In this document: piece after piece, positions 12,777 to 37,124 of the stretch
Layout of the letters: each line of letters begins with the position of its first letter
How positions within the stretch are numbered: the first letter of the stretch is position 1
Source of the DNA: Escherichia coli
GTDB lineage: Bacteria > Pseudomonadota > Gammaproteobacteria > Enterobacterales > Enterobacteriaceae
Strand: one strand, 5' to 3'
DNA: 37,124 nt
Assembly: GCF_003334385.1 (NCBI RefSeq)
Contig: NZ_QOWN01000044.1
The notes under the pieces: generated by a model
The model's database searches: none
What the model saw: the letters and a program-made list of their open reading frames with translations, nothing else
What the model was told of the DNA's origin: nothing
Program-made: the position numbers and the translations under genes

Positions 12777-15452
12777 TTACTTCAACATATTACGAATGAC
12801 ATAATGCAAAATGCCGTCGTTCTGGTAGTAGGTCAACTCCGTCGCGGTGTCGATACGACAACGGCAGGGTACGACTTCCTGGCTACCATCCGCGCGCGTA
12901 AGCGTCACCGGAACCGTCGCGCCGGGTTGTAGGTTTTGCAGATCGCCAATATCAATCTTCTCTTCCCCGGTTAGCCCTAACGTTTTACGCGTTACGCCTT
13001 GCGGAAATTCCAGCGGCAGGATGCCCATGCCAATTAAATTCGAACGGTGAATTCGTTCAAACGATTCGGCAATCACCACACGAATACCAAGCAGACGCGG
13101 ACCTTTTGCCGCCCAGTCACGACTGGAGCCTGATCCATACTCTTTCCCGGCAATCACCGCCAGCGGCGTTTGCTCCTGCTTATAGCGCATCGCAGCATCA
13201 TAAATAGAGACTACGTCGCTGTCAGGTAAATGCCGCGTCATCCCCCCTTCAACGCCAGGCACCATTTCATTACGGATGCGAATATTGGCGAAGGTGCCGC
13301 GCATCATCACTTCATGGTTACCACGCCGCGAACCGTAGGAGTTAAAGTCTTTTCGCTCAACACCCCGACCTTGTAGATATCGACCCGCTGGGCTGTCGGG
13401 CTTAATACTGCCCGCCGGAGAGATATGGTCAGTGGTGACTGAATCCCCCAGCATTGCGAGGATCCGCGCACCGTGAATATCTTCCACTGGTGCTGGTGTT
13501 GCCTGCATTTCATCAAAGAAAGGCGATAAGCGAATATAGGTTGAGTCCTCCTGCCAACCGTAGGTATCGGATCGTGTGACGTTAATTCCCTTCCACTCTG
13601 CTGTGCCTTCAAAAACTTCTGCGTACTCTTTGCGGAACATTTCTGTGGAGACTTGTTCTACCGCACGGGCAATTTCTTGTGCCGATGGCCAGATATCTTT
13701 CAGATAAACCGGATCGCCTTTGCGATCATGGCCGATAGGCTCAGAAGCCAGGTTGATATTCATATTTCCCGCCAGCGCATAGGCAACCACCAGCGGCGGC
13801 GAGGCCAGCCAGTTAGTTTTAACCAGCGGATGGATACGGCCTTCAAAGTTACGGTTGCCGGACAGCACCGCACCGACGGTTAAATCGCCTTTTTTGATTG
13901 CCGTTTCGATAGGATCGGGCAGCGGCCCAGAGTTACCAATACAGGTGGTACAACCGTATCCCACAAGGTTAAACCCCAGTTCGTCGAGATACGGTGTCAG
14001 TTTCGCTTTTGCCAGATAATCAGAAACGACTTTCGAACCCGGTGCCAGCGACGCTTTGACCCATGGTTGCCGCTTGAGGCCCAGAGTTACGGCTTTTTTC
14101 GCCAGCAAGCCTGCGGCCATCAGCACACTTGGGTTAGAGGTGTTGGTGCACGAGGTTATCGCAGCAATGACCACAGCGCCATCAGGTAACTGATACTGAT
14201 GTCCGTTCATAACATAATCGACCGGCTGGCGATCTTTATGCGTGGCATTCACTTCCAGTTCGTTACTGGCGGCAAATGCTTTTGGTACATCGGGCAGTGC
14301 AACGCGATCCTGTGGGCGTTTAGGCCCTGCCAGGCTCGCTTCAACGTCATTCATATCCAGTTCTAACGTACTGGTAAAAATTGGTTCATCGCCCGGGTTA
14401 CGCCACATGCCCTGCGCTTTGGCATATTTTTCGACCAACTCGACCTGATCTTCGCTGCGCCCGCTTAAACGCATGTAATCGAGGGTTACAGCATCGATTG
14501 GGAAGAAGCCACAGGTGGCACCATATTCTGGCGACATATTGGCAATGGTGGCGCGATCCGCCAACGGTAGTGAATCCAGACCATCACCATAAAATTCGAC
14601 GAATTTCCCCACCACGCCATGTTTGCGCAGCATTTGGGTAACAGTGAGAACCAGGTCTGTGGCGGTAATACCTTCACGTAATTTTCCGGTAAGTTTGAAG
14701 CCCACTACATCCGGGATAAGCATGGAAACCGGCTGGCCTAACATTGCGGCTTCTGCTTCGATCCCACCAACGCCCCACCCCAGCACGCCAAGGCCGTTGA
14801 TCATGGTGGTGTGCGAGTCAGTACCAACGAGTGTATCCGGATAAGCAATCCATTCACCGTCCTGCAATTCACTCCACACTGCTTTGCCGAGATATTCGAG
14901 GTTAACCTGATGGCAAATGCCTGTGCCTGGCGGCACGACGCTAAACCGACTGAACGCTTGCTTTCCCCATTTCAGGAACACATAACGTTCGTGGTTGCGC
15001 TCCATTTCCAGGCGTACGTTTTCTTCAAATGCCTCATCATCACCAAAACGATCGACGGTCACCGAGTGGTCAATGACCAGGTCGACCGGTGAGAGCGGGT
15101 TAACCTTTGCAGTATCGCCGCCGAGGCGTTTAACCGCTTCGCGCATTGCCGCCAGATCAACAACGGCAGGTACGCCGGTAAAGTCCTGCATCAGCACCCT
15201 TGCCGGGCGGTAGGCAATTTCACGGTCAGCATGGGCATTTTTCAGCCATCCTGCCAGCGCGTGGATATCCTCTTCGGTAACCGAGTTACCATCCTGCCAG
15301 CGCAGCAGGTTTTCGAGCAAAACTTTGAGTGACTTGGGTAGACGGGTGATATCGCCCAGTGATTTAGCAGCAAGCGGCAGGCTGTAGTAGTGGTAAGTTT
15401 TATCTTTGGCCTGCAACGTGTCCTTACTGGCTTCTCGTAGGGTTGACGACAT
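12777..15452 (-). CDS. acnA: Aconitate hydratase A
   Basis: 891 aa; aconitase family with the conserved Fe-S cluster cysteine ligands. Length and sequence match AcnA as I remember it. Confidence 0.96.
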
Positions 15453-34872: not shown

Positions 34873-34900
34873 CAGCCGCCAGTTCCGCTGGCGGCATTTT
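34873..34900 (+). terminator. trp operon terminator (trp t)
   Basis: AGCCGCCAG-ttccg-CTGGCGGC followed by ATTTT, 6 nt after the trpA stop. Confidence 0.85.
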
Positions 34901-35247
34901 AACTTTCTTTAATGAAGCCGGAAAAATCCTAAATTCATTTAATATTTATCTTTTTACCGTTTCGCTTACCCCGGTCGAACGTCAACTTACGTCATTTTTC
35001 CGCCCAACAGTAATATAATCAAACAAATTAATCCCGCAACATAACACCAGTAAAATCAATAATTTTCTCTAAGTCACTTATTCCTCAGGTAATTGTTAAT
35101 ATATCCAGAATGTTCCTCAAAATATATTTTCCCTCTATCTTCTCGTTGCGCTTAATTTGACTAATTCTCATTAGCGACTAATTTTAATGAGTGTCGACAC
35201 ACAACACTCATATTAATGAAACAATGCAACGCAACGGGAGAAATAAC

Positions 35248-35512: not shown

Positions 35513-36013
35513 ATGAATATGAAGACCATTGAAGATGTATTTATTCACCTGCTTTCAGATACCTACAGCGCAGAAAAACAATTAACCCGGGCACTGGCAA
35601 AACTCGCAAGAGCAACATCAAATGAAAAATTAAGTCAGGCTTTTCATGCGCACCTCGAGGAAACTCATGGACAGATTGAACGTATTGATCAAGTTGTGGA
35701 GTCCGAATCGAACCTGAAAATTAAGCGCATGAAATGTGTGGCAATGGAAGGTCTTATTGAAGAAGCTAATGAGGTCATCGAAAGTACCGAGAAAAACGAA
35801 GTGCGTGATGCCGCACTGATTGCCGCAGCACAGAAAGTCGAGCATTATGAGATTGCCAGTTACGGGACATTAGCGACGCTGGCTGAACAATTAGGTTACC
35901 GTAAAGCAGCGAAGCTTCTGAAAGAAACCCTGGAAGAAGAAAAGGCCACCGACATCAAACTGACTGATCTGGCCATTAATAACGTAAATAAGAAAGCCGA
36001 AAATAAAGCCTGA
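35513..36013 (+). CDS. yciF: Ferritin-like DUF892 protein YciF
   Basis: 166 aa from the ATG at 35513 (MNMKTIEDVFIHLLSDTYSAEKQ...), preceded by GGAGAA. The track ORF starts 16 codons upstream. Confidence 0.9.
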   Translation: MNMKTIEDVFIHLLSDTYSAEKQLTRALAKLARATSNEKLSQAFHAHLEETHGQIERIDQVVESESNLKIKRMKCVAMEGLIEEANEVIESTEKNEVRDAALIAAAQKVEHYEIASYGTLATLAEQLGYRKAAKLLKETLEEEKATDIKLTDLAINNVNKKAENKA

Positions 36014-36058
36014 AATATGAATTTTAACTTTTAGTCATTTTATAAAGAGGACATTTTC

Positions 36059-36565
36059 ATGAATCGTATTGAACATTATCATGACTGGTTACGTGACGCC
36101 CACGCAATGGAAAAGCAAGCCGAATCTATGCTTGAATCCATGGCCAGCCGTATAGATAATTATCCTGAACTACGCGCTCGTATTGAACAACATCTTAGTG
36201 AAACCAAAAACCAGATTGTTCAACTGGAAACTATTCTTGATCGTAATGACATTTCACGTTCAGTCATTAAAGATTCCATGAGTAAAATGGCTGCGCTTGG
36301 GCAGTCAATCGGTGGTATATTCCCTTCTGATGAAATAGTCAAAGGCTCTATTAGCGGATATGTCTTCGAGCAATTTGAAATCGCCTGTTACACCTCACTA
36401 TTAGCAGCAGCAAAAAATGCCGGTGATACAGCTTCAATTCCAACCATCGAAGCGATTTTAAATGAGGAAAAGCAAATGGCCGACTGGCTGATTCAGAATA
36501 TTCCGCAAACAACTGAGAAATTTTTAATTCGCTCTGAAACTGATGGCGTAGAAGCGAAGAAATAA
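36059..36565 (+). CDS. yciE: Ferritin-like DUF892 protein YciE
   Basis: 168 aa; paralogous in fold to YciF. AAGAGGA upstream of the ATG. Confidence 0.9.
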   Translation: MNRIEHYHDWLRDAHAMEKQAESMLESMASRIDNYPELRARIEQHLSETKNQIVQLETILDRNDISRSVIKDSMSKMAALGQSIGGIFPSDEIVKGSISGYVFEQFEIACYTSLLAAAKNAGDTASIPTIEAILNEEKQMADWLIQNIPQTTEKFLIRSETDGVEAKK

Positions 36566-36589
36566 TACCCTTTATACCATGTCCTTATT

Positions 36590-36618
36590 GACCCCGTATA
36601 TTACGGGGTCGTTTTTGT
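36590..36618. terminator. Bidirectional terminator between yciE and the ompW remnant
   Basis: GACCCCGTA-tat-TACGGGGTC followed by GTTTTTGTG, between the two convergent stop codons. Confidence 0.7.
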
Positions 36619-36624
36619 GCGGAA

Positions 36625-36741
36625 TTAAAAACGATATCCTGCTGAGAACATAAACACCCACGGATCGAGGCGTACGCTATCGTGTTGCTGTGCACCGCCC
36701 AGCTTATAATTGGCGGTGGTATCGATATCCATGTACCACAC
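36625..36741 (-). pseudogene. ompW: 3'-terminal fragment of outer membrane protein W gene (last ~38 codons only)
   Basis: Minus-strand frame encodes ...VWYMDIDTTANYKLGGAQQHDSVRLDPWVFMFSAGYRF-stop, matching the OmpW C-terminus as I remember it. Upstream of codon V the frame diverges (HIFYNLP instead of DWLVNMS), hits a TAA within 12 codons, and the DNA becomes AT-rich and non-coding. Confidence 0.6.
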
Positions 36742-36838
36742 TGGTAGATTATAAAAAATGTGATAAACAGCTATTTATAAAAGGAAAAACAAACTTTTAT
36801 GGTGATTTTTCATACCGTTTTTCTGTGTTTTTAACTGA

Positions 36839-37066
36839 TTGATTTTGTTAAAGTCTTTTTTTGTTTTGCAGAGGCTTATCCCCCCTTATAGTCATTCCAT
36901 AACTAACGGATATGACCATGTGGACGTGATTGTCAGAACCACCAGCAATGATGGACTCACCATTTTAAGAGTTGTAAATAAAGAATCCGCGCACGAATTT
37001 GTACAGGAAACGCTGCAGGAAGCCTGGGAAACCGCTGAACTGCTTTATCCAATAACGCGATCATAA
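36839..37066 (+). CDS. Hypothetical ORF in the non-ompW DNA beyond the truncation point
   Basis: 75-codon open frame with no in-frame ATG; candidate starts are TTG 36839 or GTG 36920, neither with a good Shine-Dalgarno. Product (...VDVIVRTTSNDGLTILRVVNKESAHEFVQETLQEAWETAELLYPITRS) is not one I recognise. May be non-coding. Confidence 0.2.
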   Translation: MILLKSFFVLQRLIPPYSHSITNGYDHVDVIVRTTSNDGLTILRVVNKESAHEFVQETLQEAWETAELLYPITRS

Positions 37067-37124
37067 TCACGGCAATAACATATTTTTTATGACATTATCC
37101 GTCATGTATGACATAACAACTATC

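Follow-up and report, generated by a model that had tools for sequence, protein, structure and literature searches.

The right-hand edge of this Escherichia coli contig raises the question of what has happened to ompW, of which only the last codons remain next to yciE, and of what kind of DNA has taken up the position where the rest of the gene should be. The window analyzed here (the whole stretch of 37,124 nucleotides) ends a few hundred bases past this break. An interpretation made from the letters alone, hereafter the sequence-only reading, had proposed either an insertion of a prophage or other mobile element within ompW, with an intact copy of the gene possibly rebuilt at the far junction, or else a deletion or replacement of the 5' part of the gene. 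Our analysis leads us to conclude, with a probability of roughly 90%, that positions 36623-37124 are the attR of a lambda-like ompW-integrating phage in its P-EibA variant, and that integration of the lambda-Int type rebuilt ompW. This family of phages was named “PPompW” by Nakamura et al. (2021; PMC8112680). The features on which the argument rests are collected in Table 1.

Table 1. Features at the ompW junction and in the adjoining host flank, given as positions in the window.
Feature	Position	Strand	Basis or remark
yciE, convergent with ompW	36059-36565	+	Open reading frame; annotated yciE in relatives; context identical to K-12
G+C-rich terminator-like hairpin between convergent yciE and ompW	36589-36611		10 pairs, then a T-run (scan)
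Displaced native ompW 3' end	36625-36743	-	Codon 174 (bases 2-3) to codon 212 and stop
28-bp core CAGTGTGGTACATGGATATCGATACCAC (ompW sense)	36716-36743	-	Identical at both junctions and in K-12 attB
Phage attachment-site arm (P arm of attR)	36744-36872		Composition; conservation among ompW prophages
Candidate IHF site AATCAATCAGTTA, perfect match to consensus WATCAANNNNTTR	36832-36844	-	In the most conserved arm block
75-codon ORF with DinI-like remnant, N-terminus missing	36839-37066	+	Pfam, PGAP
Candidate arm-type integrase-binding site CTCTGCAAAAC	36863-36873	-	Repeat analysis of reconstructed attP
Eib/Eaa-type (P-EibA) specific right-end sequence	36873-37124		AF151091, 99.2%; cut by the window end

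The position of the break can be given to the base. An alignment of the kind that the sequence-only reading had recommended, against ompW-yciE of K-12 MG1655, places the end of K-12 homology at 36743/36744, inside ompW codon 174, which is split between its first and second bases (36743 corresponds to nucleotide 521 of the 639 in ompW); identity to the K-12 gene is 100% up to 36743 and then stops. The earlier placement of the break at about 36741/36742 was right in that OmpW identity is lost there and slightly off as to the exact point, since nucleotide identity to K-12 reaches two bases further. That the gene is cut short with only its last codons left is borne out, with the native last 39 codons and the stop remaining, and the ORF at 36625-36741 on the minus strand translates to VWYMDIDTTANYKLGGAQQHDSVRLDPWVFMFSAGYRF*, which is identical to the C-terminus of K-12 OmpW. 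Reading in frame upstream of the valine at 36741 gives 11 unrelated codons (P L N Y F I H Y V A I) followed by TAA, so the stop that had been noted within 12 codons of the break is indeed found 12 codons upstream of that valine. Because the fragment has the native K-12 allele, it is the displaced original 3' end of the gene, as had been suggested. Promoterless and without an N-terminus, it is a pseudogene fragment, and PGAP labels the same fragment in related genomes as a pseudogene (“OmpW family, missing N-terminus”). In annotation it is best labeled as the displaced attR copy and should not be taken as proof that the strain is without OmpW.

On the host side of the break, between 77 and 36743, the window differs from K-12 MG1655 by 12 mismatches and no gaps over 36,667 bp (99.967% identity), a collinear backbone that spans the fabI-ycjD intergenic region to ompW. 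The strain is K-12-like, and ECOR-9 or one of its close relatives is a plausible, though conjectural, source. The gene yciE is host flank and lies outside the element, and the hairpin between yciE and ompW is also found in K-12, which makes it native chromosome. Low G+C content is seen elsewhere in the window too, in the trpA-yciG intergenic region (34900-35200, 32.5% G+C), which matches K-12 exactly and is therefore native and not foreign; JNEC-KY203 has an IS1 insertion in this same intergenic region. We also searched 36000-37124 for RNA genes as integration targets: ARAGORN found nothing, Rfam gave no match at E-values up to 1, and integration targeted to a tRNA or small RNA was rejected, with no tRNA, tmRNA or known RNA gene at the junction. 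A promoter scan returned fewer sites than its shuffled controls.

The left end of the window records an event of its own. Positions 1-76 are one end of an IS186/IS421 element of the IS4 family, and since K-12 homology begins at base 77 within the fabI-ycjD intergenic region, the strain has an IS insertion there that is absent from K-12. This event is unrelated to the ompW junction. The 76-bp IS end is multi-copy in 2144 genomes, with a median of 3 copies per genome, and has a gene for the IS421 transposase next to it. Repeated mobile DNA is therefore found at either end of the window (the IS end on the left and the DinI-like prophage segment at 36909-37124 on the right), and the window probably corresponds to one complete short-read contig whose assembly stopped at repeats. 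Sequences related to the DinI-like stretch at 36909-37096 recur in other prophages by megablast, and this repeated prophage DNA is probably why the contig breaks where it does.

Past the breakpoint the composition of the DNA changes at once. The 129 bp that form the P arm have 24% G+C against a window mean of 50% (standard deviation 6.3%) and are the lowest-G+C stretch of that length in the whole window, in keeping with the strong AT-richness that had been pointed out; the companion remark that no long ORF follows holds with the exception of the 75-codon ORF in Table 1. That ORF matches Pfam PF06183 (DinI) with an E-value of 1.4e-4, residues 20-66 aligning to positions 15-59 of the 63 in the model, and its NCBIfam DinI score is 15.4 bits against a cut-off of 111, with sigma-factor matches likewise sub-threshold. 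PGAP calls the same sequence in strain 2013C-3033 a pseudogene (“DinI-like, missing N-terminus”). On these three grounds, the partial Pfam match, the score below the NCBIfam cut-off and the pseudogene call in a relative, a full-length DinI protein was rejected, and the ORF is probably a non-functional remnant.

The AT-rich stretch is shared by ompW-integrating prophages with quite different cargo. In a blastn search (in “distant” mode), matches extending over 80% or more of window 36660-36920 were found in 1285 genomes, with about 80-86% conservation; megablast alone, which returned 86 genomes, would understate the spread of the arm, and the arm looked rare until blastn was used. A seven-way alignment that includes O157:H7, O145:H28, ETEC and commensal lysogens is conserved as far as GTTTTGCAG at about 36871 and unrelated beyond it, a loss of similarity that matches the different cargo genes of those prophages. 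An IS or transposon insertion in ompW was also considered and rejected, as there is no IS match at the breakpoint and the only matches to the adjoining DNA are a phage record and the ends of prophages. In the four inspected genomes with the exact Eib-type right end, the junction has no transposase beside it; IS remnants do occur in other ompW lysogens, further inside the prophage cargo.

The identity of the particular phage comes from the remainder of the foreign DNA. The search of 36742-37124 (383 bp) against prophage data that the sequence-only reading had advised was run with megablast against a phage collection and returned two records only, P-EibA of E. coli ECOR-9 (AF151091) at 99.2% and a partial match to P-EibC. 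The original work on the P-EibA prophage is reportedly that of Sandt and Hill, from 2000. The insertion first proposed for ompW is upheld, and the 381 bp of foreign DNA come from the right end of P-EibA, a lambdoid prophage. From yciE across the ompW fragment and the att arm to the DinI-like remnant, window 36138-37124 and AF151091 are colinear, with no gaps and 3 mismatches over 987 bp, and because the record runs on colinearly into the host, the published P-EibA sits at exactly this junction. Its gene order is J - lom - orf-401 - orf-191A - eibA - orf-156A - orf-60A - eaaA - (junction).

The same right end is present in a modest number of sequenced genomes. At least 80% of window 36000-37124 is covered in 62 of 5426 complete E. 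coli genomes, and the exact Eib-type right end is found in only 39-62 of the 5426; an exact copy of the last 1125 bp is absent from the genome collection, the best match having 1 mismatch. Four of the 62 junction-sharing genomes were inspected downstream (SCU-104, JNEC-KY203, S19-651 and 2013C-3033), and past the junction all have genes for an S6-family peptidase (an EaaA-like SPATE), a small hypothetical protein, a YadA-like protein (Eib), a DUF4376 protein and tail fibres. Very probably the strain carries just past its contig end a prophage encoding Eib (an immunoglobulin-binding adhesin of the trimeric autotransporter type, associated with serum resistance) and EaaA (a SPATE). The genes eaaA and eaaC have been described on prophages of ECOR-9, linked to the eib immunoglobulin-binding genes (PMC3153244).

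The window takes in no more than 381 bp of the insert, and the integrase, the structural genes and the second att copy lie outside it. The layout of the element was read from relatives. SCU-104 differs from the window by 4 mismatches in 21,125 bp (99.98% identity), and its insert is a lambda-like prophage of about 53 kb. From the left, the order is yciC - ompW (intact, 212 aa) - int - xis - exo, followed by cI/cro-like genes, replication genes and a Q-like antiterminator; the right part continues with tRNAs - lysis - terminase - capsid - portal - tail - J - tail fibre - Eib - EaaA - ompW fragment - yciE. At the far junction the complete ompW (14349-14987 of the retrieved locus) ends in 121 bp that are a diverged, phage-borne copy, and int and xis follow directly. 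The integrase contains the Pfam domain Arm-DNA-bind_1 (PF09003, 1.3e-21), a central domain and Phage_integrase (4.5e-17), the tyrosine-recombinase catalytic domain. A rebuilt ompW next to a lambda-type integrase is also present in the O157 (Z1723), Ch1 and S1-ESP lysogens. The intact ompW that had been expected at the far junction is therefore there in relatives, as the 212-aa gene of SCU-104 shows; for the window's own genome we infer both it and the whole prophage from near-identical genomes.

A three-way comparison of the K-12 attB, the integrase-side junction of SCU-104 and the window gives a 28-bp core, spanning ompW codons 174-183, that is the same in all three, and the second copy of the core sequence that had been anticipated at the far end of the insert is accordingly found in SCU-104, with 28 identical bases at both junctions. 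Past the core, the integrase-side copy is a diverged ompW 3' end with 27 differences in 121 bp (77.7% identity), and similarity ends two bases past the stop. The attR copy of this 121-bp att comprises 36623-36743 (36623-36624 and the ompW fragment). Its length is the same as that of the attL/R of 121 bp published for the lambda-like prophage P08 at ompW in O145:H28 (PMC8112680).

The realistic uncertainty lies in the contiguity and completeness of the prophage past 37124. The junction might belong to a prophage remnant or be a rearranged one, the rest of the element having been deleted or separated by an inversion between prophages, in which case a contiguous prophage of about 50 kb would be missing and there may be no rebuilt ompW nearby. 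Such cases do seem to arise: in EC2 (NZ_CP058571.1) a distance of 766 kb separates this attR from the ompW-int attL (at approximately 2.241 Mb and 3.007 Mb), and their relative orientation is flipped, which implies a large inversion with one end inside the ompW prophage, and chromosomal inversions at ompW/ydfJ prophage clusters have been reported (PMC8112680). The SCU-104 prophage also has pseudogenes, with frameshifts in the portal and DnaT-like replication genes and a tail-fibre gene split in two, which may mean that this copy is defective or that the assembly has indel errors. Against this, all four of the genomes inspected downstream have the same contiguous Eaa-Eib-tail-fibre module, and SCU-104 has the complete layout from int to attR. 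The element past 37124 may be rearranged in the window's genome, and we consider a remnant or a rearranged junction distinctly improbable as the overall explanation.

The second alternative, which the sequence-only reading had itself raised, is that unrelated AT-rich DNA has taken the place of the first 520 bp of ompW, leaving the strain without a functional copy of the gene. The one observation in its favor is that this 5' part is not visible in the window. A replacement of this kind would have to coincide to the base with a phage att core and bring in a conserved phage arm, and the relatives examined have an intact ompW at the integrase-side junction, with an ompW-int junction present in 1715 genomes; we regard it as scarcely credible. 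An assembly artefact, a chimeric join of the yciE-ompW region to repeated prophage sequence, would suit a contig with multi-copy mobile DNA at both ends, as is typical of short-read contigs, and is about equally negligible given the identical join in 62 complete genomes and in the Sanger-sequenced AF151091.

With the attR of an ompW-integrating phage as the preferred reading, the sequence motifs around the junction can be considered as parts of a lambda-type attachment site. Within the core, an inverted repeat of the form GTGGTA-N12-TACCAC (36716-36739) can be read from the sequence, and it is plausible that it represents a pair of core-type sites flanking the exchange region; strand exchange would presumably take place within the 28-bp core. 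Reconstruction of attP gave the motif CTCTGCAAAA(C/T), that is CTCTGCAAAAY, as a tandem triplet in the P' arm and as a single copy in the P arm. In the SCU-104 attL the triplet sits just after the rebuilt ompW stop (within 14990-15030 of the retrieved locus), and it is kept in the O157, Ch1 and S1-ESP lysogens, while GTTTTGCAG is invariant in the seven-way alignment; the P-arm candidate CTCTGCAAAAC is the sole match in the 37-kb window, where 0.02 would be expected. We propose that these motifs are Int arm-type sites because their layout resembles that of P'1-P'3 and P1/P2 in lambda. The IHF-like match in the arm is a candidate bending site, in a window where the consensus has 3 matches in 37 kb against 1.5 expected by chance, which is not above chance. 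After the triplet in the SCU-104 attL, and before the stop codon of the integrase gene, there is a perfect hairpin, AAAACTGGTCAT-CAA-ATGACCAGTTTT, which may serve as a shared terminator for the convergent ompW and int.

Taken together, these elements suggest the following course of events. A tyrosine recombinase of the lambda-Int type with an arm-binding domain would join attP to attB inside ompW, with the exchange falling somewhere in the identical core of codons 174-183. The phage would bring with it a diverged version of the final 121 bp of ompW, so that integration would rebuild a full-length ompW next to int (attL), and the native 3' end, now a dead fragment, would be displaced to the tail-fibre and cargo end of the prophage beside yciE (attR). 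The AT-rich 129 bp of the window would be the P arm of the phage, with its candidate arm-type Int site and candidate IHF site.

The rebuilt gene differs from the native one in a way that may be of interest for the cell surface. Rebuilt and native OmpW differ at only seven residues (185, 188 and 190-194); ten more codons of the 121-bp att region differ, all of them synonymously. Over residues 185-194 the native sequence is ANYKLGGAQQHDS, and the phage alleles at the SCU-104, O157, Ch1 and S1-ESP junctions are AKYKSGVTTVKDS and ASYKFNGTPVKDA. Two solved structures of OmpW, 2F1T and 2MHL, can be aligned with the rebuilt protein along its whole length. In 8-stranded outer-membrane barrels both termini are periplasmic and the turn between beta7 and beta8 is extracellular, and residues 185-194 would by this analogy lie at the surface-exposed tip of the last hairpin (beta7-beta8). 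The OmpW expressed in this strain probably has a phage-encoded variant of the C-terminal loop. OmpW is the receptor for colicin S4 (PMC2649078) and a phage receptor in Serratia (PMC10132071). That the phage-borne 3' end alters this surface receptor as a form of lysogenic conversion is a speculative and, in our estimate, unlikely proposal; if it were true, a converted OmpW allele would be present in about one in four sequenced E. coli genomes.

Occupation of this site is common. With a query centred on the K-12 attB, matches of 90-95% identity come from 1285 of the 5426 complete genomes of E. coli, and examples among the matches listed in this range are 321 nt long and end at the ompW stop, which is the signature of the rebuilt gene. 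The attR-type arm is found in 1285 genomes and the ompW-int junction in 1715, so that between about one quarter and one third of complete E. coli genomes are occupied at this site. The finding is one that is already known, as ompW is a published integration hot spot that many papers on STEC genomes list among the sites used by prophages, and the junction has been in GenBank since 2000 (AF151091). As a discovery it matters little, and its use is in the annotation of the window.

Among the closest known systems are the PPompW prophages of STEC/EPEC, such as P08 of the O145:H28 strain 112648 and the ompW prophage of O157:H7, which have the same integration point in ompW, the 121-bp att and the same integrase family. 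Their P arm is homologous, the first 212 bp or so of the junction query being approximately 84-86% identical, and the displaced ompW fragment adjoins yciE in the same way. The difference lies past the arm, where the O157/O145 prophages carry genes for DUF1076-domain proteins and IS remnants, whereas prophages of the type seen here have the DinI-like remnant and then the eaaA and eib module. With P-EibA the agreement extends to the cargo, as relatives with the junction have eaaA-like and eibA-like genes in the order of AF151091, although the Eib allele varies among them, with YadA-like proteins of different lengths. Since eaaA and eibA lie beyond 37124, this likeness is one seen in AF151091 and the four relatives and not in the window.

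The comparison with lambda is one of organization more than of sequence. Lambda integrates between gal and bio, with a 15-bp core. Shared features are an Int with an arm-binding domain, AT-rich arms, int and xis at one end with tail and cargo genes at the other, and a repeated motif that is present as a triplet beside int and as a single copy in the opposite arm. In contrast to lambda, the target here is inside a coding sequence, for which the phage supplies a 121-bp replacement 3' end, and the sites are unrelated in sequence to the lambda sites. Restoration of the 3' end of the target is a general principle among temperate phages with integration sites in genes or tRNAs, as in P22/thrW, P4/leuX and 933W/wrbA. 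The ompW element behaves like these in that attP duplicates the 3' end of the target, the gene is kept intact and the original end is left at the other junction; it differs from the P22/thrW type in that the restored ompW end is not identical to the native one, with seven OmpW residues changed.
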